Positions 7,865 through 35,038 of a DNA stretch of 64,000 nucleotides are shown here, one piece after another. The number at the start of each line of letters is the position of its first letter. The first letter of the stretch is position 1. Under the pieces are notes generated by a model that was given only the letters and a program-made list of their open reading frames with translations, was not told the origin of the DNA and did no database searches. The stretch spans positions 30,758,437-30,822,436 of the forward strand of contig NC_092672.1 in the NCBI RefSeq assembly GCF_964355755.1, in the 5' to 3' direction. Both the position numbers and the translations under genes were made by a program. Source of the stretch: Antedon mediterranea (taxonomy: Eukaryota; Animalia; Echinodermata).

Positions 7865-10800
7865 TCACACTTGATTCTGAAAAAGAGAAAAACCGAGAAT
7901 ATATACTTGTATCCATAAATTTATATACTATAGGCTACAATGAATCTAAAATATATCTGTATTATATCTATTTTTTTTAATATCGTCATTGTAAACATTG
8001 TCAATATCATGAAAATGAGAACCAAGTAAAATTTAATAGAGAAAACGAAAAATGATATATGATATAATAAAACTAATAAATTACAAATTGGTTACCAGTT
8101 ATAAACTAATGGTATCTCTTTTTTTTTTACACACAACACAATGTCAGCAGCACCAGTAAAGCATGCATTGTTATTGTTCTTTATTACAAAACATGACATG
8201 TACATTTCCTATTAAATGTAGTAATGCTAAGATAATTTAATAAACCAAATAAAATTACTCCTTACATTTTCCAGCTCTTCAATATTCCTAATCAAGGTGT
8301 TGATATTTTCCTCATATTTTAATGTTTTTAAAAAATCAATATAAAATCTACCAGCAATCAATTGCTGGATTAGTGAATCCCTTTTCGTTTCATATGACTC
8401 CATTTTCAAAGGAATGAACGTTTTGCCGTGCTCCAAAATTCTGTCACATTCTGAATTGTCAAAAAAAAAAGATTTGATAAACAAATTAACATGAAAAATT
8501 GATGATAGTCATTTCTATGAATTTTCTTTATCTTTCTTTTCATTGAAACCCCATTTTTTTCAGTCATCATAGAAAAGAAAATTAAAATGTCTGTATTAGA
8601 GAATGTGTTTGTTACTCTGCTACCTGTAATAAGTTTGTATTTACCGAATTCCCAGTATTCGCTTTCTTCGTAGGCTTTCGATGTACACAATAGAACTATG
8701 CTTGAGTCGCATATAGCTTTATCTAGAGATTGAGACATACGTCCAGACATGGTTCTTTTATCAATACAGATTTTATGTGTATCTTTCAACCTCTTCTTTA
8801 AGCTATTATCAATTAATCCGACAGTCCTAAAAGTGGAAACTTCCGTTAAATATTTATTGTCCCCCAAAAACATGATAATTTGACTTTCAATAGGCCAAAG
8901 TTAATCACTTAAATAAATAAAAACAAAATAAAAAATGTTTTCACTTAAATAATGACAAAACAAACGGTTAAATTTAACCAAAAACCCATTGTCTGACAGA
9001 CAATTAATTTATCTATTTTTGGCTTTAAATTACATTTTTTTCCTTCAGGTAAATCGTTTTTTTTTTTTTTTGTTGGCGTTTCAATTTTTGGTCACAAAGT
9101 GAATAACTATTATTTAACATTAAAATAGCATATTAAAAAAAAAAATGTAAGAAAATGTATTTTTGATAGGGACAGTATATCTTTAAGAATATCTGGAGCA
9201 ATAATTGTGGAATTAAAAAAATATGGAGTTTGAAGGATGGTATTTTCCTAAATTTTTTTGGTATTAGAAAAAAAATGTCAATAAATTCAGTCAAATAAAG
9301 TAAAAAACGATCAACAGTTATTCTCTTACATCTGCTACAAATAATATTATATGTTTTGACAATTACAAAATTAATACAAAAATGCACTTGCCCACTCTGG
9401 TTGTGACTGTAGCTAATCAATATTTGCTTCTGAAAGCAATGAAACAACTCGAATTATGAAACTTGTAATTTAAATAATATTAATATACGATTATTACAAA
9501 TTACAAAAAAATATTGTACGTATATTTCTACCTTTTGTTTTGTTTTCAACATTTCAGGCTGTTCTTTGCTTGTACTCACTGAAATAAAATTTTTTTTTTT
9601 TAAACTGCATTCCACTAGAGCACAGATGCAAAAACGAAAAAGTGCATGGGTGTGAAATATTCTACGTATACTTTACAGTTCTAATTTCTTTTCTTTCTAT
9701 ATCATTAATATATTTACCTCGTGTTCTTTTCTGTTTTGAAGTAGATTGTCCAGAGTCTTAAAATAATATAATAAAATATAGTAATAATATTATTATATAA
9801 ATTTATAATATTATTATATTATAGCGTCATTCCAACGATCATTGCTCATAGCGCTGTGGACTTTGATGTTACAATTTTCAAAAAAATACTTCTCCACGTC
9901 ATGTCAGTGCTGCCAATTCTAGCGTCCATTCGTCTTATCTGTCCACGACAGTGAATGTGTGAGCTAGTACACCGGGGCAACGCTCTACTCGTCTCGAAAG
10001 ACGTACTAGGTCATTTAAAGTGCACACGAGCATTTTGTGTACTCTGGACCTACGATTTATAGTATTTATCGGAGACGACGTAAACATTATTAATTTAATT
10101 TTTTTAATTAAAAAAATTATTATCCGAGAAGACAAGATAAATGAATACTTAACATGATTAATACATTTTTCAGTAATAGTAAGCCTTTAGCAAACTAATA
10201 GAGTATTTTTGTTTACATTTTCAATTTTAAAATTTGAAGAATAAATATTTTCAACCTGAGTTACCATCGTTGTCTGAGGTCGTTAACCTCTGTCTTTTCC
10301 GGGTTCCTTTTGATGCAGATGCTATAATAAAAAAAAGTATATATTTCTTTTTATACAGTATGGTTGTACATTATAAGAGCCTACAAAAACATATTAAAGC
10401 TACATTTTGTTTATAATTAATAATAGTTTTGTCCAAAAAATAAAAATTTAGAGATTTGACTGTTCATTTCTATCAAATCAGTAACAAGCATTAAATGTTT
10501 TATAATTTTTGTAACAATTTTACAGGCTTTCAGTTACTTATATTATCTTCTACAATAATTAACTCTTTCTTTTTCGAGCTCCTGTTAGAGTAGAAACTTG
10601 ATTAGTAATATAATTAAAATAATAATAAATGAGTAAATAGTATATAAATAATGAATGTTTATGAGTGTAATGTTACAACTAATGAGGTGAATGATGAAAT
10701 GTTATATTAATATATAACCTTAATATTGCACGACATGTACCCACAATCGTTCTATGAAATGACAGGAATTTCTTTAGGTGTTATATAATACAGTTTATAC

Positions 10801-11937
10801 ACGTTTACACTTATTGTAAGGTCTTACAACAATATATATTATGCAATGTATATATTATCATATAGGTTGACATAAATAGTACGATAATTAATTACGGGTA
10901 AAGTTTTAATTTCTCAATGTTAAATTTTAATTTGTTTTATTTTTAAATAACATGTTAACCTTTAGAAACAAATTTCATATTTTTTAAACATGTTAACGTA
11001 ATATGCCGAAATAAATAAATAAATCTGAGTCTTAATATGAAAAGCTGTGTGTGAATACAAAGTTAAAAAAGTTAATTACAAAAAAAAAAGAGTTGACATA
11101 TATCTAGTATACATATTTTTTTTTTTAATATATAATAGTTCAAGTTTAATTGCAATGAACTTTGGATGTGAAAACAGAATCAGTGTGTTTTCATGAAATA
11201 TTGGAGACCAAGATACACATAATCAGAAACTTTGAGGGTATGGTATGGGATATTTCCATCTTGACTTTATCATGCCTTTTTTTACTGTCCGTCTAATCTG
11301 TTTTACATGTTTGTATACAATGTATTTAAATTAGAAATGCAATTGTTTTATTTACAATGTTATTATAAAGACATACCGTTTGTGTTTGCAAAAAAATCTC
11401 TTTTGCATCTTCGTCAAGAATCTTTGCAAAATGCTTCATTTTCTCTATGTCACCCTCTTCTACATCGTTATTACCTTCCAGCATAAATACCAAATCCCAC
11501 TTATTTTTAAAATCAGCAGGATTTAAACCATAGTGACCGGGCATCGTTGCTAATAAATCAGTCGTATTTGAGCGTAAAGCTTTGAAGAGATTTTTTCGAT
11601 ATTCTGATATTGGTTTACCTCTTGTAAAATTGTAGTTTTTGTTGTTGTTTTTATGTTTTTGTTTGAACTTCTGTATAATCTGTAAAGCGCGCGTCTCTTT
11701 TGTTACTTCTGCAATGTCTACTAATATTTCTACATCTGTACAGGATGCATCATTAGGCTCGTACGAAATATAACCCATGTCTGTGAGTTGATTAAATAAA
11801 TCGTGTCCTGTGACAATTCGTCTGCTTAACAGTTCTCCAGTACAGTGATCGTATAGTAGAAGTCTTAGCCAAAACAATTTTTCACCTGTATATATTTTAC
11901 TTATATCTGCAAGTAATCCTGGAAATTCGAATGACAT
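7865..11937 (-). CDS. Gene A: tandem-DED / basic-acidic linker / TIR protein (multi-exon, with a 1-nt phase break after the DED exon)
   Basis: Exons: 11937-11377 (tDED: FPGLLADIS..., ISEYRKNLF), possible microexon 10581-10564, 10321-10256 (SKGTRKRQR), 9756-9718, 9578-9532, 9429-9392 (KQILISYSH, GC donor), 8826-8645, 8450-8266 (ECDRIL..FIPLKME..RFYIDF), 7876-7865 (NQV*). Phases are consistent from 10321 onward, but the DED exon ends in phase 0 while the next exon needs phase 1. Confidence 0.75.
9785..10082 (-). mobile_element. 5'-truncated Nin/Deu-domain SINE with L2-like tail (intronic)
   Basis: Minus strand reads GATAAATACTATAAATCGTAGGTCC...GTGCACTTTAAATGACC...TCGAGACGAGTAGAGCGTTGCCCCGGTGT, resembling the Deu/Nin core as I recall it, and ends AGCGCTATGAG...GACGCTATAAT(AAT)n. 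Confidence 0.6.
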
Positions 11938-12719
11938 TTTCTAGAATAACGAAAACAAATTGAAAACAATATTTTACTTCAATTAATAACACGGGGCTTA
12001 TGTGTATTATTTTTCCAATGACATTAAAATGCTAACTTGTATTGGTATGTTCGAACAATAAATTTATGATTTGTTTGTTACCAGTTATCGTTAATTATAA
12101 GTTCCTGGTAAATTCATTTTCTCAAAGCATTAAATTTTTATTATTACTGCATTATTTCTATTGCTAGTATTGTTATTATTATCGTTACAATTATTATGAT
12201 ACATTTTACTGATTTTATTTGTTTATTTATTTACTTTTTTATTTCAAATTTATTCATTTAAAGGGGCTTTGTGTCTAAAGCTTTTGCTTATAGGTTATTC
12301 TATTCAAAACTTCAAATAATTTTGTATTTATTTTGTATTTAATAATATTCAAAAATATAATTATTATATAATTATGTATAATATGAGATTGTGAATAAAG
12401 TAATATATTATAATATATTATATAGAACTATCATAAAAATAGAACGCATCCCATCTGCCCTACTGCTTCTAAAATTTTACCTAAGTTGTAAACATGTTAT
12501 AATAATAATTCAGGTATATTTATTGTCCAAAAACGATCAATGATACAAATAGCCAAAAGGCTGAAACCGTAACATTTTACATTAAAAAGGTTAAAATGTA
12601 TAAGAAAATGTATATATGTAAAAATATATAAAATTAAATATAAAAACAGTAAACGACATTCATATAATTTAACTGAGTTAAAATAAAATCTAATCATTAA
12701 GGAGTCTGATTAGGGCTGG

Positions 12720-13370
12720 AATAGCTGACTTGCGGCGTCTCTCAGTACGACAAAATATATGTGGTATAAACACATACCAAGTCATCTAAAGGAGCATTGC
12801 ATTTACGTAAAATATACAAAATGAAAATGTTACGGGAGGCCCTAGATATAATATCAGCAACATGGGAATCACATTTCAAGTCGCTCTGCAAAGTTACGCC
12901 CATTACCCAAATCGGACCTAGGAACAGTAACATAGCTAACATGCAAGAAGTGAACAACCATAACCATTTCGATGGTATCGGAAGCATGATTATTAGTGCA
13001 CCGGAGTTCAAACTCACTAAGTATACATTGCATAGAGCTGAATAACTACCTTTTTTAACAATCCAATGGTAAGGTCGTCAACATATTTCCATCGCCTGCT
13101 GTTTCCCTCACAAGCATCAATGAGGGTGAGAAAGAGCACAGGCTCCCCAACCTCGTACATTGCGGTACCCCACAAGTAATTTGACGTGTAGATGATATAT
13201 TAGTGCCAATTTTGGAATTAATAACTCTATTAGAAAGGAAAATGCAGACAATGGGTGTGATTGACGGTTTAGACACCAATGGAAATCATCTTATAAATCA
13301 AAACAGTGTGGCCAACGCTTTGGCGAAATATATAGCACAAACATTGACGTTATATATTATTGAAAAGTTA
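12720..13370 (-). mobile_element. Degenerate non-LTR retrotransposon RT fragment
   Basis: Frameshifted ORFs 13055-13279 (ITCGVPQCTRLG) and 12742-13017 (GVTLQSDLK..HV..II.RAS....YILR). Confidence 0.8.
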
Positions 13371-13669
13371 TAATGTGTATGCATTGTAGTCCCTTCGACG
13401 AATAAACAATAATTTTTTCTAAAAGTTTAATCCCATGCATTGGTTTATATTATATTACTGCAAATTGTGTTTTAATAACCGTATGATACACGTTAGGCCT
13501 AAATGTTTAGACGTCCATACGCCTAAGTTCTAAGCGTCCGTAGTAAAATAAATATTAGGTTGGATATAACCGCATGTAGTTAGACTGGATTTCAGATTTT
13601 ATTACACAAAGGTCAAAATATAGATGGGCCTAATATAGAATTAATAATTTAAAGGTTTACACACAATGC

Positions 13670-13910
13670 TTACGGTAAATTTAATACTGTCTCACAATCT
13701 CAATCCACCGACTTTGTTCAGGATACAGACTTAAACCATACAGTATCGTGTTTTTTGTTGTAAAATGGCGTGTCTACCCAGAATCCTCATGAATATGTAA
13801 TAGAATAAATGATGTATTGTCATGACCCACTTCCGTTTAATTCAATTGGAAATTCCAATATGACAAATATAGGCAACTGCTTTGGACAAAAGACTACTAC
13901 TACTACTATC
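13670..13910 (-). promoter_or_regulatory. Putative promoter and non-coding first exon of gene A
   Basis: GTAAG donor at ~13673 (minus), YY1-like AAAATGGCG 13762, ETS-like ACTTCCG 13829 and kB-like GGAAATTCC 13848. The three motifs are conserved in the paralogous copy at ~24150-24330. Confidence 0.4.
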
Positions 13911-14915
13911 TTTATCTCGTTTTATACGGTACAGAGATAAAGCAAAGCGGCCGATTGAGTGAAACCAAAGCGACTTAGGTAAACAGTAGCTTCAGCGGCA
14001 TGGAAATGGAAATTATATTGCGCTCCTTTTGTCCTCGTTATACATAATCATACAATGCTCCTAAAATAGTGCGCCCTCGCGCTGAGAAAGTGTTTGGGAA
14101 ATCGTGCAAGCGATTGATTTTGACCTGGCAATGTGAGTCTGGAGTCTCATAGATATAGGTTTATTCACTAATAATTTAATTTGTTGAATTAATTACTTGT
14201 ATAATATTAATATACAATTGATAATTTTCGCTTTAGATGAAAAAAAAAGTGGGATGAGGGGGGTGGGGGGGAGGGTTATAAGCTCATTAGTGTTCCCGCT
14301 TTGTTTTTCAGCTTTACCTGATTTTTTAAATTCTGTCTCCCATGTTCATTAACCTTATTGATATCATTATTGTTCCCAATTGAATATACTGTACAATAAA
14401 TACAAAGACAAGAAGTACAACTCATTGAAACTTAAATAAAAATGTTTATTGTAAAAATTCTTATTCCTTGCACTCATTTCAAAATGTAAACTATAAAATA
14501 AATTGTCTATAGGCGTTAAGTAAATCTAAAATCTAAAAAAATCACAGTTATAGTACAATAGTAAAAATCCCTTGATTACAGTATGCTCTATTCTATTATT
14601 TTGAAGAAACTTTGTTGAATGATCGTTTTTGTTGAATGTTCGGAAAATAGGTTCAAACTCCAAATAATTTATTTTCTATGAAGATTAGGTCAACTATAGA
14701 ATAGTATACTGTTTTGTTATATGGCCATAGCGTGAGGTAATGAAACAAAATATAAGGATAATTTTCTTACAATCTGAGTCTCATGGTGGGATGATCTTTC
14801 TCTTAATAACCTCTGAGTAGTGAGACTCTTTCTTGGTGGATAATTTAAAATACCATTCATTTTAAAAATGTAATTCTGTCCTTCATTCCGACATCTAAAT
14901 TCTACCTGATCTAGT

Positions 14916-17900
14916 TTACTTTTGTTCTTTTTTAATACATTTAATCAATTTCTTTACATTATCATTAAACTCCATGTTGTTTGTAAAGTCGATATAAAGC
15001 CTGCTCTTTCCTTTCACTAGTTGTTGAACTTTAGAGTTTTTTTCAGGTATATATTTCTCCATTTTCAATGGAATAAACGGCCTCTTGTGTTTTTGAATTT
15101 TTCTGCACTCTACAAACAAAAATGTGAAACTTATAAATTCACTTATCTTTTCTATTAAGTGTAGACTTACATTTTCGTTGTATTTAATTGCGCATAATTT
15201 ACCTCTCTTTTACTTAATATAATACATACCAAATTTGCAGTTGTCACTTTTTTCATAGTCTTCGGATAAACAGATTAGAACTATATTTGATTGTTTTATT
15301 CCCTTTTCAATATCGTCTGGCATAAAGCCGGTAATTTCAACAAAATCAATCCAGATTTTATGTGATTTCAGTTTCTTTTTTAGTTCATCATAAATGTGTC
15401 TGACAGTTCTAGAAAAGGAAAAGCGATTATTGCGTTGGAATAATTGGTGTATTTTTAATTTATATATAATAATATGATTTAACATTGCGATAAATGAATG
15501 ACTATATATTTATACACTACCACCATAGTAAATTACACTCTGTAGATTTTTAAAGTGGTGCGGTGTTTCTATTTTAAATGTTTTACATACTGTAGGTATT
15601 TATACTTACACGTCGTGAGTGTGATTGTAACTTATCATTATTTGCTTCTGCAAACAAGAATAAATAAAATTGATCACAGAGTTACATAATTTAATGTAAT
15701 TACTGTATAAGATAATACTAGAAGAAATTATAATATTTTTATATATAAAACCGATATAATAGTTTGATACACGGTTTATAACATACCAAATTACAACATA
15801 GAAATTACCTTTCCATCCTTTGATTTCTTTCCAGGTTTCAGTTTTCTACTTGCACCTGTAATTAATATTACGTATAGATAAAAATTAACATGTCTTACAA
15901 TTGATTTGAACCTCAACCGACTATAGCTACATATTGCACTAAAACTAAAATTCTCATCTTAAAATTGTCAAAAGATCTTAATAATTGCTCTATTTTTGTA
16001 GTTGTTATATTCAACTTATATTGACAGTTTAAATTTTTAAATGTACACACACATTTTTAGCAGACTGCTTATAAGTGTAAAACATCGATACCTTTTTTTC
16101 TCTTGAATTTTGAAGTAGAAGGTCGGTTGTCACAATCAGAGTACCCTGCATACAAAATATAATTAACATAATACATACTGTAGCTTTAATGTAGTTTAAC
16201 AGAAATCGTTTAAAAAAAGAAAATACATGCATCTCAGATATAAATTAATAAGGAATTGTTATAATCATTACTAGATTGATATGGGGGTTTCTACATTTTT
16301 AAAGTTATTTTAAATTTCAAAGATAAATTTAAATGTCTAATAAAGATTTCAACCTGAGTTCTCCTCTTCATCTGACTCTTCTGAGGTCGTTGACTTCTTT
16401 CTTTTGCGAGTTATTTTTGAAGAAGACACTATAATAATGAAAATAATCCACAATGCAATCCTGATATTCGCCACCGACCCCATACGTTTTTTACAAAAAA
16501 AAAAAGCTACTTGGTAGTTAAAACTTACACTTTAGTTACCGTAAATCAGTTAATTAATGTTATTTCATTTGTTTTAATTAAAAATTGTTAATTCTTGTAT
16601 TTTTAGTTCATTATGTCGGTCGGTTGGTTGGTCGGTCGGTTGGTCGGTAAACACTAACTTGAGCACGCGACTGCAGCCATGTATATGGCCTTGTTTAATT
16701 AGATGGCGATAAGCTTTGAAGCTAAATTTGCTAAACCTTATCCATTATTATTTTGCTGATAATAACGATTTGAATACAATTAAAGATATCTGTGGTCAAT
16801 TTGATTAAAAAAAAAAATACTACCCAATTAGTTTTGTATTTTAACCTCGAAAAATATTCCAAAGATTATTATGCTATTAATTGTTTCCGTTCCATACCTG
16901 ATTTTTTCTTCGTTTTACGAGTTGAAGTAGATTGTTTGTTATCGCTATCGGCATCATCACTATCAGACTTTTTTGATATTGTACTAGTTTTTTTCGAAGT
17001 AGAAGCTAAAACAAAACAATAATAATAATATGATAAGCAATGTTAGCAAGTGTATACAAGGTAAACATTTGTGTATTAAAGTAAAATACACATAATAAAT
17101 ACAATTCTTAAATTAATATTTAGGCCTATATCATACATTCCTCTAAATTATAGGCCTACAGTCTTGTTACCTGATGTTTCTGTGATATAATCGATTCCAA
17201 TTTCCTTTAATTCTTCTATAAATTTGTTCGATTTTCTCTTTTTGATTTTCTGTCTGCTTTCCAAATCAACTATCATACTCCAGCGATTTGAATATTGTTT
17301 TTTGACAGGATTATTAAAGTATTGGTCAATGTCACCCCGGTCACTCTCTTGTAATTGAAAAGTGATCGCCACTATTCGTTGTCTGTGTGGCGACAACAAT
17401 GGTGATACAGTTTCGTCATTTGGAAAGGATGGCAGAATTTCACTTAGTTTCTTCCTCAGTGCAGCTTGGTTTGTAACAATAATCGTATCATTCAAAAGTG
17501 TTATATTGTTGGGACCCAAATACCCGGCACCATGCAATGCCTGTAGCAGATCCATCCCTGTTTTAGCCCCTGACAGAATATCCATTGTCAATAGATCCTT
17601 GAACACACATTTCAGCATATCTAACCACCTGCGGTCGCCGTACCATTTCGAGAATACTACCATGATCGTATTATACTTCCCCTTTGCCGCAGCAGCAGCT
17701 GCTATAAAACAAAACGTATATAAAGTGAATGCTTAAAACAAACAATGTGATCAGTGCTGAGACAACCATTAATTTGTCTCAGGTCAATGTAAAATTTGAT
17801 TTAATTTGTAGTGTGACTTATTCCATTTCTTTAATACGAATAACAAACAAATTATTTATCTATTTAAATAGATAACAACTGGGCCCTCTTGGAGACCACC

Positions 17901-18079
17901 CTTTGACTGAAGAGGTTGTCCAGTATAAAGAAAATATTTCAATTCAATTCAGGTAGAAAATGTTATTATAGAAATTGTGCCAAAAATTATATAATATTAA
18001 GAATATTAAGATATATAATAACTATTACACAATGTCTTATGTAAAACTACAATTTAAGCCTACCTTCTTTGCTGGCCAT
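14916..18079 (-). CDS. Gene B: intact tandem-DED / basic-acidic linker / TIR protein, 9 coding exons, 413 aa
   Basis: Exons 18079-18064 (MASKE), 17701-17171 (tDED), 17005-16898, 16428-16354 (ITRKRKK..SDEEE), 16145-16092, 15855-15809, 15647-15610 (KQIMISYNH), 15408-15230 (IWID..IVLICLSEDYEKSDNCKF), 15109-14916 (ECRK..FIPLKME..LYIDF*). All junctions are GT-AG and phase-compatible, total 1242 nt. AATAAA on minus at ~14445-14450. Confidence 0.88.
16602..16696 (+). mobile_element. Short deleted HINE copy (intron of gene B)
   Basis: (GTCG)n plus GCACGCGACTGCAGCCAT..ATGGCCTTGTTT 3' end, as in 5348-6061. Confidence 0.65.
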
Positions 18080-20465: not shown

Positions 20466-20937
20466 TGTCACGAACTCCTCTTACGTATGTTTCCGAGCGG
20501 TTGAAAATACTTTAGGAACTCCCTTGTGACATAAAAGTATACACACAAAATCCACAAAGTTGTAAGATAACTCAAAAACAAAGCTTTAATTTCAATCAAC
20601 TTCAACTTTCAACAATCCAGTAAGCACTTTAAACAACAGCTTCACAATGACTTTACAATATAACATCCAACCTCTAATCCAACCTCTAATCCAACCTCTA
20701 ATCCAACAACCTTACAATAGTTTACATCCCTTTATATACAAGATGCTCCTATCCTTCTAGATCATTCTTTATACTTCTCATTATTACATGATTACAGTTT
20801 CTATTAATAGCACTTCTGGAATGTTCTTGATTGTTCTTATTAATTATACATGGTTTATTAAATCAAAACATCTTATTCTAGAATGTTCATGTAAATACTA
20901 TGTTACTCTATATGTTAGGGAATGGTAATTTATTACA
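20466..20937 (-). repeat. 3' LTR
   Basis: Direct repeat of 23662-24133, preceded on the minus strand by a PPT. Confidence 0.95.
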
Positions 20938-21010
20938 CTCCCCCCTCTTTCTGAGCTCAAAACTCTTTCTTGGAGTTTTGAGGGGCAAGTATACACGGAC
21001 GTGGCAAAAG

Positions 21011-23272
21011 TTAACCCACTCCTATTCTATAAAACTTAAATACGCCATAATAACATACAACATAATCATTAATAATTACTAATAATGAACCAACAATATT
21101 CATGTAAATTTGTCGGAATGGTTCACTAACAATTACTGACATAGGAATCACCGGGGCCTTCAATTTGGTTTTATACTTTGAAGTTTTCTGGCAATTTTCA
21201 CAAGTGTTGCAATATTCGGTCACATCCTTTCTAATACCAGGCCAAAAGAATCTCTGCTTTATCCTATCTAATGTCTTTTTCCTACCTAAATGACCTGCCA
21301 AAGGAATATCATGTGAGACTTTCAATACACTATTACGGCAAGGGTATGGAACCACTAATTGCTCTATTGGTTCTATCTGGTGTTTAGTGAAAACCAGCCT
21401 AAATAAAATTCCATCCTTACAGACTATCTTTATAGTGTCATCATCCTTCTGTACTAACATCTGTTCTCGAAGTGAAATTAAAGTTCTATCCTTAACCTGA
21501 TAATCCTTAAATTTATCTCTGCCAATATCTAAAATGTCTAATTCACTATCTTGGCTAGATTGAGCTTCCTTTGTTTTTGCAAACTCTTTCCTAACTTTTC
21601 GTTTCTCACTTCTGGTTTTATGAACTTTTTCCTTGGGAGGGTTGTCACTGAGTATTTGGCCATCTAAATGTCCAAATTCTTCTTGAAAATTAACCACATC
21701 ATCTAACTGATGTGAAATAACCCCAGAAGCTTTTTCCGACTTTAATTCGTTTTCCTCTCTTAGTTTTTCTTTTCTAGCATGATCTCTAGTGGCAACAAAA
21801 CTATGCCTATCATGATTCTTATCCCCCTTCCCTAATAAGTCTCTAAATTTAGGAAAGTCCCTACCAAGAATTACATCTCTTGGTAAATCGCTGCAAACGC
21901 CAACCAACAAATTATGGTCTTCGTTATTAACCTTAATATTGACGAATGCAGTAGGATAGGCTTGGACATGGTCATGGACGCACCTGCATGTAATTTTAGC
22001 TTGCTCCGCGCGATTAATTTTCTTAGCCGCTACTAAATCAGAATGAACAAGTGTCATATCACATCCAGAGTCTATCAAAATTTCACAATCACATCCTTCA
22101 ACTAGGCCTCTACAAATGTAAGGTGTACATGGTTTTGAAACAGTATCTGTTTTTGTCGACAAAAAGCCATCCTTACTTCGACAAAATCGTTCTATGTGGC
22201 CTACTTTTTTGCACCGTCTACAAACGAGAGGTTGTCTAGCGTCAGATTGTGATTTATGAAAGTTATCAGGGGGATTATTATTACCCTTACTGTCAACTTC
22301 AGGAGTGCCTTTCACTGTTTTCTCCTGGTTGTTTCTATTTTCGTGTTTTCTATTTTGAAACTTTTTCTCAAAATCGATACCTTTTCTAGCTTGAAAATAA
22401 TTATCTGCTAATTCCGCAGCATTTAATCCCGAATCTGGTTTATGTTCTTTAACCCAAATTTGTACCCCTGTGGGCATAATATCTATCAATTGCTCTAAAA
22501 TAACAATTTCAGCTAAATCATCTTTGCTTTTATCAGCAGGCCTAGCCCACTTAGTAAATAAATCTTTTAACCTAACATACATTTCTCTATAACTTTCTTC
22601 ACTTTTCTTTTTAATTGACCTAAACCTTTGCCTATATGTCTCTTCAGTTATGTCATACCTTTGTAATATTGCTTTCTTCACTATGTCGTACTGGTTACTT
22701 TCTGTCACTGGTAGTGATGCATAGGCTGCTCTTGCTTTGCCTGTCAAATGAGGTATTAGTTTTACTACCCAGTGTTCTTTTCGCCACTCATAGGTGTTAG
22801 CAATACGTTCAAACGTAGTGAGATAATTTTCAATATCATCACTATCAGAAAGCTTTGCAATCTGAACTTCCTTCAATCTCATTATGTCTTTTAATCGTTT
22901 CTCCTCACTGTCCTTTTGCTTGTCCATTAACGCCATTACTAATGCTTGCTGTTTCTCCATATCTTCCCTACGTAAACGTTCTTGTCTTTCCATATCTTCC
23001 CGACGTCTTTCATTATCTTCTTGACGTGAACGTTCTTGTTGTTTCATCATCTGCTGCATCATAATATTCTGCTGTTGCATTTGCTGCTGCATCAACAACA
23101 AAAAATCTTTTGAAAATGAGTCAGCCCCTGTAGGGTTATGTCCACTGGTTGGTCCAGACTCTTCTGCCTGTTGTTCAGGTTGAATTGATTGAACTGATTC
23201 TACATCCGAATCAGTTTCATCGCCGCCGCTGTATTCTCTACCGGATCTTGTTGTTGATTGTTTATCAGCCAT
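21011..23272 (-). CDS. Gag (SCAN-like capsid, CCHC knuckle) - aspartic protease - truncated integrase polyprotein, 753 aa
   Basis: DDIENYLTTFERIA..W, ETYRQRFR, CRRCKKVGHIERFC, LIDSGCDMTLV, then the integrase Zn-binding region (H..LAGHLG..KT..RFFWP..C.TC..CQ) directly after the protease. No RT or RNase H. Confidence 0.92.
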   Translation of the reverse strand: MADKQSTTRSGREYSGGDETDSDVESVQSIQPEQQAEESGPTSGHNPTGADSFSKDFLLLMQQQMQQQNIMMQQMMKQQERSRQEDNERRREDMERQERLRREDMEKQQALVMALMDKQKDSEEKRLKDIMRLKEVQIAKLSDSDDIENYLTTFERIANTYEWRKEHWVVKLIPHLTGKARAAYASLPVTESNQYDIVKKAILQRYDITEETYRQRFRSIKKKSEESYREMYVRLKDLFTKWARPADKSKDDLAEIVILEQLIDIMPTGVQIWVKEHKPDSGLNAAELADNYFQARKGIDFEKKFQNRKHENRNNQEKTVKGTPEVDSKGNNNPPDNFHKSQSDARQPLVCRRCKKVGHIERFCRSKDGFLSTKTDTVSKPCTPYICRGLVEGCDCEILIDSGCDMTLVHSDLVAAKKINRAEQAKITCRCVHDHVQAYPTAFVNIKVNNEDHNLLVGVCSDLPRDVILGRDFPKFRDLLGKGDKNHDRHSFVATRDHARKEKLREENELKSEKASGVISHQLDDVVNFQEEFGHLDGQILSDNPPKEKVHKTRSEKRKVRKEFAKTKEAQSSQDSELDILDIGRDKFKDYQVKDRTLISLREQMLVQKDDDTIKIVCKDGILFRLVFTKHQIEPIEQLVVPYPCRNSVLKVSHDIPLAGHLGRKKTLDRIKQRFFWPGIRKDVTEYCNTCENCQKTSKYKTKLKAPVIPMSVIVSEPFRQIYMNIVGSLLVIINDYVVCYYGVFKFYRIGVG

Positions 23273-23591
23273 TTTTTAAATCTGGATGAGGGTCTTGTTA
23301 CTAGTTAATCGTAGTTACCGAGACGTTCACAAGTCTACTGTTCCAAATAAATAATGTACTGTTCTTAAAACAATGTTTGTGTACTTACGATTAAACAAAA
23401 CGTAGCACCACGGCTTCCGTAAAATATCTCAGTATCGTAAGTACCACTTCCTCAAAATATCAATAAAAGTACAGTTGATCCTAAACAGCCACCAATCTAT
23501 GGCAAAATACAGTAGATCAAACTGCTACCACAAAATCTCACAACAGTACTGTAGATAAATACACAGTTAAGTCGAACAGTAGATCGAAATA

Positions 23592-23661
23592 ACCGCTGCC
23601 ACCAAATTAGGCTGAACACCGCTGCCACCAAATTAGGCTGAACACCGCTGCCACCAAATTA
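23592..23661 (-). repeat. Triplicated primer-binding site (26-bp period), tRNA-Leu-like
   Basis: ACCGCTGCCACCAAATTA at 23592, 23618 and 23644, matching a tRNA 3' end ...ACCGCTGCCA-CCA. Confidence 0.85.
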
Positions 23662-24133
23662 TGTCACGAACTCCTCTTACGTATGTTTCCGAGCGGTTGA
23701 AAATACTTTAGGAACTCCCTTGTGACATAAAAGTATACACACAAAATCCACAAAGTTGTAAGATAACTCAAAAACAAAGCTTTAATTTCAATCAACTTCA
23801 ACTTTCAACAATCCAGTAAGCACTTTAAACAACAGCTTCACAATGACTTTACAATATAACATCCAACCTCTAATCCAACCTCTAATCCAACCTCTAATCC
23901 AACAACCTTACAATAGTTTACATCCCTTTATATACAAGATGCTCCTATCCTTCTAGATCATTCTTTATACTTCTCATTATTACATGATTACAGTTTCTAT
24001 TAATAGCACTTCTGGAATGTTCTTGATTGTTCTTATTAATTATACATGGTTTATTAAATCAAAACATCTTATTCTAGAATGTTCATGTAAATACTATGTT
24101 ACTCTATATGTTAGGGAATGGTAATTTATTACA
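23662..24133 (-). repeat. 5' LTR
   Basis: Direct repeat of 20466-20937, adjacent to the PBS. Confidence 0.95.
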
Positions 24134-25063: not shown

Positions 25064-25095
<32 letters not shown>

Positions 25096-28000
25096 ATCTA
25101 CCTAATTTTGCTTTTTTAAATTACAGATATGCGTTAAGATAGATGAATGTGCAATATGCATTCTGGAAAGTCTGAATAAATATATCTAACTTACGTTTAA
25201 ATATAAAGCTGATATAGCTACGTCGTTATTGTCTAAATTTACTGAGAAGAAGATCGCTGTAGTTTGGCGTGGGTTGATTGTCCCGATACGTTATGAGAAG
25301 ATAAACAACAGTCAAGTATGTTAATAGACTAGATGTATATATTACTAAGCAACACCACCATAATTCAAATAAACGGTATTACTTTCGGTAGGCCTTTTAT
25401 TACCTTTTGGACACAACACAAGTAGTATAACTATCTAGAATATGATTGCTACATCTGTAATCATCACGATTTCATTGTTTATTGTTCGAATGTTTTGTGT
25501 TAAAGGCACACGGAATCTCAGGTCACGTTCAGCTTACAACAACAATTGCAGGGAACATGACGATAAACAAGACTTTAAAATTGAGAAGAATTGAACATTT
25601 TAATTAGCAACAAAGATTTCACCATTGAAAACTGTCATGGCAGAAAAAGTACATAATAATTATTATAATTATGATTTATGCCTTGCCTCACAAAAGAAAA
25701 AAATATAAAAGATAGTATTACGCAATGAAAGAAGATATCGCAAAAAATGAAAATATGAAATAAAAAAAAAAAATTACACAATTAAATGAACTTGGCAACC
25801 AAATTAAAAGCCGTACGGTAGTACGATAGTTCATTGCTTGGCCGTACTCTAAGTAAGTCTAGGCCAACATGTAGTGGGTAATATAGTCACCTTGTACCCA
25901 AACCAACTCGTACCCATTACATTTGTTGTGAAGATGGTAAAGTAAATGTGCGAGCCTGTTTAAATTTGTTTCGGAGCTCTTTAATAGTGCGAACCCTTCT
26001 AATTGGTGAGCTCTTTAATTGTGCAACGAACCCTTTTGAATTTTGGGCTCTTTGAGGTTTTTATTTTTATTTTTTCTTCTCATTAATGATGCTTTACAGT
26101 TACGAGCCACTATAACATCATAAGCCAGGTGCCTCTAAAAAATACTTGTTTTGTTATTTAATATTTGGTGTTACGAGAGATTATATTTATGACAGTAGCA
26201 AATGGAAGCAGATAATAAGACAAAACAAATAAAAATGTAACAAAGCCTATATATAATTATTACTATATTTTAATTTAAAAGAAAACCCTTAACAAATTAA
26301 TGAGTATACAAAGACTAATCTACTTCAAAATAATATGGTGTAGGTTTACATGGCAAACGTTTAACTTTAAGCTAATCTACTTGAATAAAAACAAAACGCT
26401 GAAAAATATTAGGCCCTAAATGAAACTGCTAATAATAAAAAAGAAACAAAGTCTGTTTCTATATTTATAAAATCTAGTATAGATCAAAACAGAATATACT
26501 GTATAGAATATGACACTATTTAGCTTCCTTTAGCTATAATACGTTTAATAAACTTAGGAGAAACTTTAAACAAATAGTAATAATCTACATCGTTGCCAAC
26601 AATCAACTTTTGTACTAAACTTAATCAAGTGCACCGAACTCAATCTACTATCAAAATCACAATGGTATTACATATAAAAAAAACACACATTTTTCAAATA
26701 TAATTTAAAACAATTTACATTATATTCAAACTGTTAAAATTGAGGTATAGTTTAATAACCAACTTTACGATCGATTTATCGGCAATAAGGTAATAATATG
26801 GTTTCTTTGATCTGTATTTCAATGATTGGTTGAAATCAATTGGTACTTTCAATTTTATTATTGTAGGTACTAAATTGATACCTTAAATATTTGTAATATA
26901 TCTACCAGTTTGAGCAGCAGTGTTAACGTTTTCTAACTTTTCCTGAAATTACCCATTTGTTAGTTTGCTTTGTAGGCATTGGATGCATGCATGTATGTTT
27001 ATCATAGCTGATCGTCGGTACCAACCCAGACCATCACATTTGATCCTGAAAAAAAAAAAACGGAGAATATACACTTTTATCCATATATATTACTATACAA
27101 TGGGTCTTTAAATAAATTTTTTAGATTGTTTTTGTTTGCATCCAAAAGGACAAAAAAACATGTAATTTATTTATTTAAAAAAGCAATATAAGATTTACTA
27201 AACAATAAATTATTTTATTTGTTTAAATATCGTCATTGTTAACGTTGTCATTATCATGAAAGTGAGAACCAAGTAAAAATGATAAATGATATGAAATTGT
27301 TGGTAACTGGTATATAAACTAGTATCTCTTTATTCTTTACTTAGGTGCTACACATTTCCATCAGCAGCAGTAAATCATGCATTGTTATTGTTCTTTATTA
27401 CAAAACATGACATGTACATTTCCTATTAAATGTAGTAATACTAAGATAATTTAATAAACCAAATAAAATTACTCCTTACTTTTTCCAGCTCTTCAATATT
27501 CCTAATCAAGGTGTTGATATTTTCCTCATACCTTATTGTTTTTGAAAAATCAATATAAAATCTACCCGCAATCACTTGCTGAATTTGTGAATCTTTTTTC
27601 GGTTTATATGACTCCATTTTCAAAGGAATTAACTTTTTGTCGTACTCCAAAACTTTGTCACATTCTGAAAATAAAAATGATAAACACATCAACATGAAAT
27701 ACATTGACAATTGTTATTTCTATGAATTTTCTTTATCTTTCAATTCATTGAAAACCCTATTTTTAGTCAGTTATACAAACAATTAAAATGTCTGTAGTAG
27801 AGAACGTGTGTATTACTCTGCTACCTGTAATAAGTGCGTATTTACCGAATTTGCAGTATTCGCTTTCTTCGTAGGCTTTCGAAGTACACAATAGAACTAT
27901 GCTTGAGTCGCATATAGCTTTATCTAGAGTTGTAGACATACGTCCAAACATTTTCCTTTTATCAATCCAGATTGTATGTGAATCTTCCAACCTCTTCTTT

Positions 28001-29290
28001 AAGCTATTAACAATTAATCCGACAGTCCTAAAAGTGAAAATTTCCGTTAAAGATGTATTATTCCTCAAAAACATGAAAAACGAAGATTAATAAAACCACA
28101 CTTTGAATAGGCCATGTTGTAGTTTTAACAAAGTTAATCATTTTCATAGAAAAAAAATAATGTTTTCACTTATAAAATCATAAAACAAAACGCTTAAATA
28201 TAATCAAAAACCCATTGTCTGGAATACCGTACACATGGCGATCCAATTTTTGGTCAAAGTGAATAAGTATATGTGAAATTAAAATGGAATATTCAACAAA
28301 CAAATTTTAAAATATTATATTTTCAGGGAAAAATATATCTTTAAGTTTATCTGTAGCAATTAATCATGGAATAAAAAACATAGGGAGTTTAAAGGTATGG
28401 TATTTTCCTCAAACATCTTATTTTTATAGATTGAAAGTGCTAGAATTATTATCTATTGATTGTTTAAATTACATATACTTTTAATAGGATTTAAGGCATT
28501 GAAAGGTTACTGCCCTCATTCTTTCAATGAGTATTTTAAACTAGTGAAAGTTAGCTTTTACGTTGGAATTCAAAAGGCAATACTTTTCATAATTCTGTAT
28601 TATTATTATTATGAATTATTAAAGTTTCACAAACAATTTAAATATTTAAGGCTGCTCTAACGAAACACTATTTATTTCATGTTGTGTATTTATTTGTATT
28701 ACAATTGTTTAATTTTCTTGTATACGGTTTTATCTTAAATGATTGTACAATATAGAGTGAGTGCATAATCTGTTTGAGCTTTTCTCACTCATGGTTATTT
28801 TTTCATTGGCGACTGAATAAATATTATTATCATTATTATTATCGTCATCGTCATCATCATCATTATTATTATTATTAAATGTGTTGGAATATTAGAAAAG
28901 AAATGTCGATAAATTCAGTGGCTTATTTAAAAACAATCAGCAGTATCAACTGCTAATAATAATTGTATGTTTGGACAATTATAATTTTAATTATATTAAC
29001 CAAATGCACTTGCCCCCTCTGTTTCTGACTGTAGCTAATCATTATTTGGTTCTGAAACAAAAAAAAACTCGTATTATGAAACTTGTAATTTCAATAATAT
29101 TAATACATTTTTTGTTATAAAATATTATCTATTTATACCTTTTGTTTTGTTTCCAACTTCTCAGGCTGTTTGTTGTTTTTATTTTCTGAAATCAAAAATA
29201 TTTGCATAAATGCATTCCATTAAACCACCAGATGCAAACAAAAAACTGCATTCTAACCATAGATGTGAAATATTCTACGTATACTTTAAT
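24335..29290. repeat. Segmental duplication block, paralogous to ~1985-9670
   Basis: Colinear similarity including the TIR exons and 3' flank; lacks the HINE and the 41-bp array. Confidence 0.9.
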
Positions 29291-32200
29291 GCCTTATTTG
29301 GCATAATTGAAGTTTTATAATGGTTGTATTGTTTGTTCTTGCAAAGCAAAAAATAGTCACATTGTTAATAGGCAAAATATCGTACCTTTGCTTTTGCAAT
29401 TAATAGCAATATAATAATAATAACTATAATAGGCAGTCAAAATCTCGAAGCCCTTGAAGTCATCATACGATTTAAGAGCACAGTAGGCCTAAGCTGAATA
29501 GTGTTTTTAGTTTTACTCCCATAATAAGTGCATATCTGTAAACCATGTATTAGTTGATATCTTCAATAAAAGAATGTGCACTATGCACTTAAATAAGAAA
29601 ATATAGCCTACCTCAGTAGGCTATAAAGGTAAAATACCTTCTTTAGATGTTATAAAGACAATAGGTATCCTAGCCTAGGCCTACTGTGTCTTTTCAAACA
29701 TGTAGGCCTTTCAATCTGAATAAAATGAAAAGAATCTACTACTAGATGTATTTATAACATAAATAATGAATGTTTTTATATTCTTGTGATTGTACAAATA
29801 ATTTAATGAGGTGAAATATCAAATTCTTTTTTTCACTTGGGCTTTTCCTCATGAAAATAGAATGTCGTATTTCACCTCATGAATTTATTTGTACCATCAC
29901 ACTCATAAACATTCATTATTTGAATAATAACCTGCGTTCTCTCCTTCATCAGATTCTTCTGAATTGTCTGCCATCTTTCTTTTACGAGTTCCTTTTGAGG
30001 TGAGTGCTATAAGAAAGAAATTTAACAGTGGTAATAGCCTATCAAATGTATAGTCTACCAGGGTTTTGTTTAATGTATCGTTATGGTATAGTAATATTAA
30101 TTTATGGAATACCAATATTTACCTCTTTTCCCCTTCATTTTTGGAGTATAAACTTCGTTGCTATCGTCAGAGTACCCTGATGCAAATAAGATCACAATTT
30201 AACAGTAATTAAAAGGTAATTTCATTAACCTAATGTGTTATTTAAATGTTTGATATTTAAAACTGAAACCAAAAACAGACTTGATAATAAATTTAATAGC
30301 AAAACTGTTTTTGTGTTCCTGTAGTAACACAATAATATTATTAATAATAATAATAATTAAAGTAGACGTTTTATTTTCGTTAAAGTTTTAACCTGAGTTC
30401 TCTTCTTCGTCATATTCTACTGATGTAAGTGTTGCCTTCCCTCTTTTAGAGGATTTTGAAGCAGGTGCTATAATAAAGACAATGTAATAATGCAATAAAA
30501 TCAAATATGGGGTCAGTAGGCTATGATTTATTTTTACTGTAGGTATACGTTAGTATAAAACAGAAATACTCAATTTTTTGCATAAATTTCATTATTATTA
30601 AATATTATCTGTTCAATTCCCAATAAAGTATAAAGACAATAGGTATCCTAGCCTAGGCCTACTGTGTCCTTTTAAACATGTAGGCCTTTCAATCTGAATA
30701 AAATGAAAAGAATCTACTACTAGATGTATTTATAACATAAATAATGAATGTTTTTATATTCTTGTGATTGTACAAATAATTTAATGAGGTGAAATATCAA
30801 TTTTTTTTTTCACTTGGGCTTTTCCTCATGAAAATAGAATGTCATCTTTCACCTCATGAATTTATTTGTACCATCACACTCATAAACATTCATTATTTGT
30901 ATAATAACCTGCGTTCTCTCCTTCATCAGATTCTTCTGAATTGTCTGCCATCTTTCTTTTACGAGTTCCTTTTGAGGTGAGTGCTATAAGAAAGAAATGT
31001 AACAGTGGTAATAGCCTATCAAATGTATAGTCTACCAGGGTTTTGTTTAATGTATCGTTATGGTGTAGTAATATTAATTTATGGAATACCAATATTTACC
31101 TCTTTTCCCCTTCATTTTTGGAGTATAAACTTCGTTGCTATCGTCAGAGTACCCTGATGCAAATAAGATCACAATTTAACAGTAATTAAAAGGTAATTTC
31201 ATTAACCTAATGTGTTATTTAAATGTTTGATATTTAAAACTGAAACCAAAAACAGACTTGATAATAAATTTAATAGCAAAAACTGTGTTTGTGTTCCTGT
31301 AGTAACACAATAATATTATTAATAATAATAATAATTAAAGTAGACGTTTTATTTTCGTTAAAGTTTTAACCTGAGTTCTCTTCTTCGTCAGATTCTACTG
31401 ATGTAAGTGTTGCCTTCCCTCTTGTAGAGGATTTTGAAGCAGGTGCTATAATAAAGACAATGTAATAATGCAATAAAATCAAATATGCGGTCAGTAGGCT
31501 ATAAAGGTAAAATACTTTCTTTAGATGTTATAAAGACAATAAGTATCCTAGCCTAGGCCTACTGTGTCTTTTCAAACATGTAGGCGCTATGATATATTTT
31601 TACTGTAGGTATACGTTAGTATAAAACAGAAATACTCAAATTGCATAAATTTCATTATTATTAAATATTATCTGTTCAATTCCCAATAAAGTATACGTTG
31701 TAAATACAGAAATAAAAAGACATCGAATTTGAATTATTGACAATACTTGAGTTATTAAAATGGCAAAACATACCTTTAAGACCACTTTCCTTCAGCTCTT
31801 CAATAATTTCGTCAAAGTTGTCTTCATCTATTTTACCTCTGCATTTTTCAAGATCAAATAGCATATCCCAGCGGTCCGAATATGGTTTCGTAGGATAATT
31901 AAATAGTCCGTTGATTTTATGAACGTCCTCGTCCGATAGGGTAGAGAAAAATTTCAGTACTCTTTGTCGGTGCTGTGTAAACGATGAAACCTCTGCATTT
32001 GAAAACGATGGCAGCAGGTTTCCAAGCTCTCCTCTCAGTCCATCTTGATCGGTGGTGGTAATCGTGTCGTGCAGAATTATAAGATTATTCCGACTTAGTT
32101 TTCCAGCATCATGTAATGCATTTAACAGAACTATTGTTCTTTTTTCTTTATTATTACTGAACGTTGCGTTATCCAATAAGTCAATGCACGTACATTTGAG

Positions 32201-35038
32201 TCTATTGAATAATCCCTCGTGACGGCGCTTGTCATACCAGGCTGAAAATTTTACTTTTAACTTGCTATACTCGCCCTCTGATACACCTTATAAAACAAAC
32301 AAATATAGAGTAGAAACTATTGTTACATTGATGGTGGTTGAATTCCATAGAAAACCTTAGTTTTAAACAAATCATACAATGATCAATATTAACAAATCTA
32401 ATAATTTTTTTGATAAATATTACCCTTGTAACACCTAATTTAATTGTAGTTCTTACCCTGTAATTTTATCGCCAAATGAGGGAAAAAAGGTCTTATAAAA
32501 TAATTGCTATTGATGTAGTCCTAGTAGGGCCTATAAATGGGCCTTTAGATTTAAAAAGCGTATTTAAACTGACCATGGTTTATCATTCAGATAGGCTGGT
32601 GATAAAAATCATCACGTCGTTTTAATGATTTAAGTAATATACAACGTAGGCCTACTTTTAATAAGTTTAGAATTTTAGAAATATGAAATTGATTCCCTTA
32701 TTTTTAAATACTCAAGTATTCTATTTATTTTATTATCAATTATTTAGGTCTGCATTTTGAAAAAAAAAATAGATCAATAAAATTACACAACATGCTTTAA
32801 AGTACCGCAAAAGCATTCTTACAATAAAAGAATTGGTTACTAATTTCTCTATCAATTCTAAACTACGGTGTTATTGACCCCCTTAACAACAACAAGTGTT
32901 CTATGTTGAGTGACGATGAAATAACTAAATTACATGATGATGCAGACTAAAAAAAACAACAACAAAATAAAAATGGTAATACGACTAGTTTATGTTTTAC
33001 ATGTGTTACCTGTTTTCTTTTTTTTGTTACGTATTCTTTTTGTAGTTGAGGCTATATTAAAAAAACAATAACATTTTTAAAAATGTAATAATGCAGAACG
33101 GACAGCGTGAGAGCGCGGTGAATTACTATTTTATCGGTGAAAGACCGTAACTAAGCAAACGAGACCCCCTTAACAACAAGTGTTCTATGTTGAGTGACGA
33201 TGAAATAACTAAATTACATGATGATGCAGACTAAAAAAAACAACAACAAAATCAAATATGCGGTCAGTAGGCTATAAAGGTAAAATACCTTCTTTAGATG
33301 TTATAAAGACAATAGGTATCCTAGCCTAGGCCTACTGTGTCGATTCAAACATGTAGGCCTTTCAATCTGAATAAAATGAAAAGAATCTACTACTAGATGT
33401 ATTTATAACATAAATAATGAATGTTTTTATTTTCTTGTGATTGTATAAATAATTTCATGAGGTGAAATATCAAATTCTTTTTTCTTTCGGCTTTTAATTA
33501 GCACTACTTATATGTGTTTATGGTGCATGGTGCCAACATCAATTCTGGCTCAATGAAATGTAGGGCTAGTTTTTGCAAAGTATTTTATAGGCATCTGTAT
33601 GGTCACTTTAGATATATTGTACCTTGTGGATTGACTGGCAGTAATTCGGAAGTCTCTGTAAGCCTACCATCTGACAAATCTGTAAAAAGAGAAAAATAAA
33701 TAATAGTACCTTATAGCTACATATAGTAGATAGTTCATATTATACAACGCCAATGGAACAACTCACTTCCCTTATTACTTGGAATAACGAATGTTTAGAA
33801 AGATATCAATCTAATCCATTGGACTTGTTTAGTAAACAGCGACGTTTACATACTAAACTGAATACTACCTGGATGAATGAGAATATTCATATCCGTAATG
33901 TATGTATAGAAACCCATTGTTTTGTTAATCTGTCTGATAAAATACATCTTATATGATACAGCTACTAAAGATTAAAATTGTAACATCGATAAATAACTGA
34001 TTACTAGTTTCAAACAAGACACTAATTTTGCCGCAAAAAGCTCAGGTAAAATCCGTTATTCACTGAAATGGAAATTTGAAGAAAGACAGTTTTACAAAAT
34101 GGCAGACCATTCAAAAACGAAGTAAAAACTTGATTGAGGTGTAAGATTACTTGAAAAGAGAGAAAGAAAAAAAAAATTAATAATATTAATTATAAATAAA
34201 TTAGAGAGCCAGTTTCTCTCTGTAAAAGAATAATTTAATAGAATAATACCACACAACCAAATACTGTAGAGCTAGCAAAACAGTTGTTGGAGGAGCATGG
34301 TCTTAACATCTGAAGTTGGCTCCAAATACGAAGAGGGAAGAAGTAACAAATATAATATAATAATTTTAATAATATGACTCAAATTAGAAGGAACAACAAA
34401 TAATTTCATTTATGATACAAAACAATCAAGTAATCACAAGCCGATTTTTCATTTACATACAGATCGTATACCAAAAAGAACACAAATATTGCTCTAATTT
34501 AAAGTTTCTTTGCCGTTTTTGTTTTGTGTATTGTTCTATATAAACATCTATTTGAACACAGATATTCAAAATTATAAAAAAAGGTCTTCTTCAGCATTAA
34601 GATAATTTTTTTTATTTGTTTGACAAGTCATTCCAATTTTAATTTATTTATTCAAATAAACATTATTACTGATACAGGTCTAAGTTCTACATCTACACAT
34701 TTCTACGTAAATAATTACAAGGTTCTTGGACACTTTGTTTTCAGTTTTGTCACGAGAGGATGTTAATCATTAATATAAAATGTACTTGTTCAAGACCTAT
34801 ACATCTTTAATTTGGTAATCACTCACTTCAATCATGAATTTCCAACATAAAACTCCACTCAAAAAGCCCTTTCAATAACTTTCGTTAGATATTGTTTTTG
34901 TTAAATATAAGTGGCATTACATACCTGGTATTGAACTATGCAGTTCTCCTAAATCTTCTGTTGATGAAATTCTCGACGGTCGGTTAATTTCATGTATTTG
35001 TTGTGGAACAAATGTAGGCGTAACATGTCCTACAGGGG
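27034..35038 (-). CDS. Gene C: tandem-DED / expanded basic-acidic linker / TIR protein (5' end unresolved, may extend to at least 52574)
   Basis: Phase-compatible exons 35038-34925, 33679-33623, 32286-31774 (tDED), 31445-31371, 31153-31100, 30983-30909, 30467-30393, 30176-30123, 30006-29932, 29185-29139, 29051-29014 (NQIMISYSQ, GC donor), 28027-27846, 27664-27480, 27045-27034 (DQM*). No internal stops. Confidence 0.82.
29655..31680. repeat. ~977-bp tandem duplication of a three-exon linker module within gene C
   Basis: ORFs 29903-30115 and 30880-31092 are near-identical; exons are offset by 977-978 bp. Confidence 0.92.

Follow-up and report, generated by a model that had tools for sequence, protein, structure and literature searches.

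Genes joining tandem death effector domains to a TIR domain in the crinoid Antedon mediterranea, with a tentative role as clustering-gated innate immunity effectors

Clustering activates the TIR enzyme of SARM1. TIR enzymes of plant NLRs are also activated by clustering (bioRxiv 10.64898/2026.04.20.719644), and the tandem DEDs of caspase-8 assemble into filaments and mixed DED complexes (PMC11874512). Catalytic TIRs require the alphaC glutamate, and non-TLR animal TIRs, including one from an echinoderm, produce cyclic ADP-ribose (cADPR) (bioRxiv 10.64898/2026.04.20.719644). Death-TIR, CARD-TIR, DED-NACHT, and DED-RLR proteins have already been described in invertebrates (PMC2575513; PMC6321704; PMC8662601), and DED-TRADD-N is a case of DED-based lineage expansions with variable effectors (PMC8195603). 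Many animal TIRs have recently been found to make cADPR. Here, we describe three minus-strand loci (genes A, B, and C) of the crinoid Antedon mediterranea in which a tandem-DED exon is joined through a linker rich in Ser, Lys, Arg, and acidic residues to a TIR. They lie in a 64,000-nucleotide stretch of contig NC_092672.1 (the window; positions below are counted from its first letter). A TIR placed on a death-fold pair that is also borne by NLRs and an RLR of the same animal is a candidate deuterostome link from sensor to enzyme.

Gene B has nine exons from 18079 to 14916, all with GT-AG introns, and the exons joined by coordinates are exactly RefSeq XP_071944412.1 (413 aa, uncharacterized, Antedon mediterranea). 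A protein search with its DED exon returned one protein, 100% identical. The first coding exon (18064..18079, minus strand, ATG at 18079) is connected to the tandem-DED exon by RNA joint 18064/17701, with 26 letters on the short side, and the RNA contig match of the tandem-DED exon (17171..17701, minus strand, phase 1-1) stops at both splice sites. Four linker exons follow within 15809..17005 on the minus strand (17005-16898, 16428-16354, 16145-16092, and 15855-15809); they are predicted to be disordered and have RNA joints except at 16898/16428. The TIR is encoded within 14916..15647 on the minus strand by exons 15647-15610, 15408-15230, and 15109-14916, also with RNA joints, and its Glu350 codon is split between 15230 and 15109. 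In all three genes, the TIR is interrupted by three introns with common positions and phases (0, 2, 1), the third of which divides the alphaC glutamate codon. The initial annotation had proposed three paralogues of the same architecture. The three loci and their common TIR introns bear this out, but gene A is a chimera rather than a plain paralogue. The DED exon had also been taken for the N-terminal exon, which is incorrect for B and C, where other exons come before it. The quoted helical motifs are present (ISEYRKNLF in A, LSPHRQRIV in B, and FTQHRQRVL in C), and the TIR motifs IWID and C.FE need qualification, as gene A has ICID and YWEFE instead.

The structure of gene B, the only one modeled, was predicted with AlphaFold2 from a 57-sequence alignment and compared by VIA-align. 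The model has a mean predicted local distance difference test score (pLDDT) of 80.7, with residues 2-172 all helical, a disordered linker at 185-265 (pLDDT <50), and the TIR, taken as residues 277-413. Residues 14-183 superpose on the caspase-8 tandem DED (4zbw) with Z 15.7 and a root-mean-square deviation of 2.8 over 163 aligned residues, and the family profile matches caspase-8 over both DEDs (E 2.5e-5). The DED exon is thus predicted to adopt a caspase-8-like tandem DED fold, in agreement with the death-fold pair originally suggested. The whole-model Foldseek list is dominated by TIRs, with the caspase-8 tandem DED at rank 43. Pfam DED scores gene B below its curated cut-off (E 7.5e-4; 20.1 bits vs. 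35.9) and the exons of A and C at 13 bits, and several family members exceed the cut-off. The linker had been called similar to a nuclear localization signal, a description that holds weakly: K[KR]x[KR] is more frequent than in shuffles in A (p 0.03) and not in B (0.22) or C (0.58). Family-wide, the motif follows 29 of 84 DED modules vs. 15.7 expected.

Pfam TIR_2 matches gene B with E 1.5e-18 (67.9 bits vs. a cut-off of 28), and the modeled domain resembles Hydra TRR-2 (4w8h; Z 16.7) and SARM1 (Z 15.9). Glu350 lies within the helix at 345-356 and aligns with the glutamate of the RPS4 WCVRE motif, which upholds the assignment of an alphaC glutamate; this residue is present in all seven TIRs aligned, including A, B, C, and the Anneissia japonica protein discussed below. 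Four residues ahead of it, at an aromatic position that is Trp in SARM1, A and C have Tyr and B has Asn. The nearest sequences from outside crinoids (32-35% identity) are two bivalve proteins (ARM-TIR and TIR-SAM) and one other.

Transcript evidence came from one of five sequencing runs that cover the stretch of genes A and B. None is recorded as RNA; run X1 was accepted as RNA-like because its contigs have joints at GT-AG introns and its depth is zero over 12738-14447. Contigs were compared at 96% likeness, and 15 of 16 joints were listed. Among these, seven of the eight introns of gene B appear as spliced joints, as do all six introns of gene A inside the compared stretch, including the one that splits the glutamate codon. 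The short side measures at least 31 letters in 9 of the 13 joints of A and B, and the DED-to-linker joint of gene A has 58. The linker-to-TIR joints of gene B are on a single RNA contig of 1036 nt. A chain of RNA joints runs through DED, linker, and TIR in both genes, consistent with the expectation that transcripts join DED and TIR exons.

Distribution of the DED module was examined with a three-exon profile against 1.84 billion proteins (E up to 0.001), giving 224 matches, of which 150 were listed. Nineteen of 20 module proteins looked up are from two crinoids (12 from Antedon and 7 from Anneissia japonica). Partner domains were tallied by hand from Pfam scans of the 150 listed carriers (cut-offs 1e-3 to 1e-7); they are NACHT (23), Roc/COR (15), kinase (3), caspase (2), TIR (2), RIG-I-like (1), and Rel (1), and 88 carriers have no further domain label. 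XP_033103796.1 is the RLR and XP_033126911.1 a caspase with the module. Anneissia XP_033109181.1 is the other TIR carrier besides gene B and reads DED pair, TIR, DED pair. These searches expose a crinoid DED family of more than 200 proteins whose members Pfam often scores under its cut-off. As a separate observation, the crinoid DED pair also occurs on Rel-homology, HEPN, ubiquitin, RING/B-box-NHL, USP, ENTH, and fibrinogen proteins (listed as P0060, P0128, P0032, P0034, P0087, P0064, and P0095), some of which may be gene-model fusions.

Phylogenetic trees were built with FastTree for 194 modules and with IQ-TREE for 54 of them. Modules of B and C group in one clade with a DED-only neighbor and the two modules of the Antedon NLR XP_071941920.1 (SH-like approximate likelihood ratio test [SH-aLRT] 98.8, ultrafast bootstrap [UFBoot] 100 on the 54 modules). 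The module of the Anneissia TIR protein is next to join (SH-aLRT 95, UFBoot 73), and caspase-borne modules are outside. Phase 1-1 of the DED exon in B and C suits exon shuffling. Rather than being a caspase-8 prodomain in itself, the DED pair is a module shuffled among crinoid proteins. The initial reading of a caspase-8 prodomain with a TIR replacing the protease agrees with the predicted fold and is too narrow about kinship. Because the B and C modules have their closest relatives on an NLR and not on a caspase, partners of the NLR sensor type are more probable than FADD or caspase-8.

We propose, with a confidence that falls somewhat short of even, that the crinoid DED-pair/TIR genes encode innate immunity effectors that cleave nicotinamide adenine dinucleotide (NAD+) when clustered. 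An activated DED-bearing sensor would nucleate DED assembly. This would most simply be an NLR such as XP_071941920.1, named here because its two DED pairs are the most closely related to the modules of B and C. The assembly would recruit tandem-DED-TIR proteins, whose flexible linker of 50-150 residues would leave the TIRs free to pack together and to convert NAD+ to cADPR or ADP-ribose; the product would signal, or the cell would be killed. DED-only neighbors and the frameshifted allele of gene A described below would be dampers or nulls. The family would have arisen by phase 1-1 exon shuffling, with fast turnover. In support of an effector role, a second crinoid has retained both the architecture and the glutamate, in the Anneissia protein XP_033109181.1.

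Several points weigh against this proposal. When glutamate-bearing animal TIRs were screened in E. coli, only 12 of 61 showed activity, and TLR2, IL-1R9, and IL-1R10 are inactive although they retain the glutamate (bioRxiv 10.64898/2026.04.20.719644). The active animal TIRs, one of them from an echinoderm, mostly made cADPR without depleting NAD+ (bioRxiv 10.64898/2026.04.20.719644), so a signaling role is no less likely than killing of the cell through NAD+ loss. In the DED pair, the RxDL motif has no counterpart (caspase-8 RINRLDLL aligns with the family consensus kvtkqfgl). Columns of the FL surface, by caspase-8 numbering, are V65%/L81% in DED1 and G36%/L42%/Y74% in a gappy region of DED2, where the surface is matched only in part; a caspase-8-type filament is thus not assured. 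TIR fusions are rare (2 of the 150 listed carriers), and kinship with the NLR module may reflect exon donation rather than partnership. In run X1, from one study, no RNA contig reaches all the way from DED to TIR. Joint 16898/16428 of gene B is absent among the 15 listed of 16, and 4 of the 13 joints have short sides of 26-29 letters, including the DED-to-linker joint of gene B (28). Spliced gene A of the window haplotype reaches a stop 12 residues past the DED-to-linker joint. Finally, the A and C TIRs differ with dN 0.106 and dS 0.091 (nonsynonymous and synonymous divergence; dN/dS 1.16), and homologous non-coding stretches and introns differ by 0.07-0.18. At the sequence level, this comparison shows no purifying selection, and the figures would fit fast-evolving immune genes or weak constraint alike.

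An adaptor role is the best-surviving alternative, although we consider it unlikely. The proteins would be non-catalytic bridges similar to MyD88, with the TIR binding TIR proteins, the DED pair recruiting DED-bearing caspases, kinases, or the DED-Rel protein, and the glutamate retained as ancestral baggage. The order of death fold, linker, and TIR is that of MyD88; the nearest ESM Atlas clusters are MyD88 (0.85-0.86), which serves as a lead only; and the module is found on plausible downstream effectors, with two caspases, three kinases, and one Rel-homology protein among those listed. Absence of product from 49 of 61 glutamate-bearing animal TIRs also suits a bridge (bioRxiv 10.64898/2026.04.20.719644). 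However, the TIR is closest in sequence (32-35% identity) to TIR_2-type domains of invertebrate ARM-TIR and TIR-SAM proteins, not to MyD88, and the glutamate is retained in TIRs that share only 35-46% identity.

Gene A shows both chimeric origin and allelic variation. Its A-type DED pair shares only 22% identity with that of gene B, its TIR is 79% identical to that of gene C, and its 3' region duplicates the gene C 3' region, indicating that a C-type tail has come to follow a DED pair of another subfamily. The tandem-DED exon (11377..11937, minus strand, ATG at 11937) is followed by linker exons 10321-10256, 9756-9718, and 9578-9532 (9532..10321, minus strand; open frame, RNA joints). TIR exons 9429-9392 (GC donor), 8826-8645, and 8450-8266 (8266..9429, minus strand) have RNA joints 9391/8825 and 8645/8450, the latter splitting the alphaC glutamate codon, and the RNA contig of this TIR ends at 8266. 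The likely last coding exon, with three codons and a stop (7865..7876, minus strand), was placed by its acceptor and frame beyond the RNA-compared stretch. The six exons of the linker-TIR tail are in open frame. In the window haplotype, the 561-nt DED exon has an end phase of 0 and does not fit the linker, as the next exon requires phase 1, and the RefSeq model is DED-only (XP_071944405.1, 237 aa). At DED-to-linker joint 11379/10322, the RNA contig has one extra base, with 2 letters between the two sides, so by arithmetic gene A is in frame (phase 1) in the RNA individual. Paralogue XP_071940978.1 (78% identical) reads as the RNA allele does at this joint. A DNA contig is identical to the window over 11136-11624 and unchanged at the joint, which disfavors assembly error as the source of the frameshift, with the caveat that it possibly comes from the same individual. 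Gene A thus presents a natural polymorphism between in-frame and frameshifted alleles.

Three further features accompany gene A. A degenerate linker-exon copy with an in-frame stop (10544-10600, minus strand) is skipped by the RNA joint. The TIR introns at 9391 (A) and 29013 (C) are GC-AG, with the A joint seen in RNA, and the gene B counterpart is GT-AG. A minisatellite of about 41 bases occupies 7020-7860, immediately past the likely stop codon.

The open frame of gene C, 540 codons long, extends through 14 exons between 35038 and about 27.4 kb; one splice donor is GC, and the sites are otherwise canonical. This structure is based on open frame and splice sites, the RNA comparison having covered genes A and B. 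At least three exons are ahead of the DED exon (35038-34925, 33679-33623, and 33051-33010; 33010..35038, minus strand; all phase 1-1 with open frame and GT-AG sites), and there is no start codon by 35038, so the gene begins further upstream. The tandem-DED exon (31774..32286, minus strand, phase 1-1) is 44% identical to that of gene B. Linker exons in open frame (29139..31445, minus strand) comprise a tandemly duplicated three-exon block (31445-30909 and 30467-29932) and 29185-29139; the duplication is an 875-bp direct repeat with 98% identity. TIR exons are 29051-29014 (GC donor), 28027-27846, and 27664-27480, with a likely last exon at 27045-27034 (27034..29051, minus strand) and the glutamate codon split between 27846 and 27664. 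Word-index protein searches returned no record for gene C or for the gene A TIR, which is weak evidence of absence since the method also missed the Anneissia protein. DED-only protein XP_071944414.1 (P0018) is 74% identical to the gene C module; its accession adjoins that of gene B, and it is probably a neighbor outside the window.

Farther along the window is a 110-codon phase 1-1 exon in five minus-strand copies with 93-99% identity (44782-45108, 45871-46197, 46973-47299, 48072-48398, and 52246-52572), four of them in a 1.1-kb tandem array. These copies are possibly the 5' part of gene C; the intron sequence that flanks them resumes at 35271-35680, past a 9-kb insertion. A stretch homologous to this exon comes after the A-type DED pair in XP_071940978.1, so the exon may encode another partner domain of the DED module. 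It appears TIR-like by eye; there was no match in Pfam or, by HHalign, to alignment A2 (probability 0.6), and its model is poor (pLDDT 43.7).

Mobile elements are distributed through the window. A Gypsy-type long terminal repeat (LTR) element at 20466-24133, between genes C and B, has identical 472-bp LTRs and is a very recent insertion; its 754-aa frame has SCAN, protease, and integrase zinc-binding matches and no reverse transcriptase match. The 9-kb insertion (35668-44528) is nested, with ends that match an element at 1-1190, and holds fragments of long interspersed elements and a 1044-aa endonuclease-reverse transcriptase frame; it interrupts the intron between the 110-codon exons and gene C. 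A tRNA-Thr(TGT) lies within a perfect 97-bp inverted repeat at 53071-53144, and three tRNA-Asp(ATC)-like copies are in an inverted repeat block at 61429-62557. These tRNA-bearing repeats are probably related to short interspersed elements or miniature inverted-repeat transposable elements. Several fragments with Penelope-like reverse transcriptase and GIY-YIG are on the plus strand at 53475-60011.

Such a setting could also be read as a birth-and-death cluster in which exon shuffling yields fast-turnover products with little fixed role, such as decoys or near-neutral chimeras, possibly nuclear through their basic linker. The chimeric gene A with its frameshift allele, the dN/dS of the A and C TIRs, and the abundance of mobile elements all favor this explanation, as do two in-frame linker deletions and the RNA and window alleles of gene B, which have 12 listed coding differences, six of which alter the residue. 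We nevertheless judge it improbable, given that B (9 exons) and C (14 exons) both retain an open frame and canonical splice sites, A and B yield spliced transcripts, and the same architecture occurs in Anneissia on a module that groups with those of B and C. Least probable by far is an annotation artifact that stitched separate DED-only and TIR-only genes together, as might be suspected from the DED-only RefSeq model of gene A, the many DED-only relatives, and the two gaps in RNA coverage noted above, since RefSeq itself joins the domains in gene B, RNA joints connect DED to linker and linker to TIR in both A and B, and the same fusion is present in Anneissia.

Clustering-gated effectors would be part of a broader scheme, which we regard as doubtful: crinoid immunity would have been rewired around one tandem-DED plug, with filaments seeded by NLR, RLR, or ROCO proteins recruiting caspases or TIR enzymes as an animal two-gene counterpart of the plant TIR-NLR resistosome, an inflammasome-like assembly whose output would be cADPR or loss of NAD+. 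No tandem-DED-TIR protein was found in the open literature, including parts of PMC7075850, PMC5094078, PMC11797021, and bioRxiv 10.64898/2026.09.21.753143, a search limited to openly available main texts; supplementary tables of one TIR preprint, which catalog 16,000 TIRs together with the active one from an echinoderm (bioRxiv 10.64898/2026.04.20.719644), and subscription journals may bear on this negative. An amphioxus table lists DED with NACHT and not with TIR in the part examined (PMC2575513), and ESM Atlas (clusters of at least 50) gave no DED+TIR cluster among the matches listed of 30. Tandem-DED-TIR is outside the MyD88, SARM1, and caspase-8 families and is so far found only in two crinoids.

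Caspase-8 and cFLIP (4zbw, 8ybx; PMC11874512) share with the crinoid module two rigidly linked death folds, as predicted here, and a helix motif that matches ISAYRVMLYQ. However, the crinoid module is about 15% identical, lacks RxDL, and has its nearest relatives on an NLR, and the C-terminal caspase or pseudo-caspase domain of those proteins is absent from B (by Pfam) and from the gene models of C and A. MyD88 and the invertebrate CARD-TIR and Death-TIR adaptors have the same N-terminal death fold, linker, and C-terminal TIR with no membrane segment (PMC6321704; PMC2575513), but they carry one DD or CARD, whereas the crinoid genes have two DEDs and a TIR_2-type TIR with the alphaC glutamate. 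The earlier distinction from MyD88 and SARM1 holds for both: Pfam gives DED rather than Death and the structural match is to tandem DEDs, and neither the Pfam scan nor the model of gene B contains ARM or SAM. SARM1/TIR-1 and invertebrate ecTIR-DC ARM-TIR proteins also end in a TIR with the alphaC glutamate, but the crinoid architecture has no ARM or SAM, and DEDs would supply clustering. Sea urchin, amphioxus, Nematostella, and Patiria have DED-NACHT NLRs and DED-RLRs in which DED is likewise an N-terminal sensor connector, with caspases proposed as the output (PMC2575513; PMC8662601). In plant TIR-NLR resistosomes (RPS4, RPP1) and animal TeTIR-STAND proteins (bioRxiv 10.64898/2026.09.21.753143), a TIR enzyme is switched by NLR-driven clustering, as proposed for the crinoid genes, in which sensor and TIR would instead be separate genes linked by DED-DED contact.

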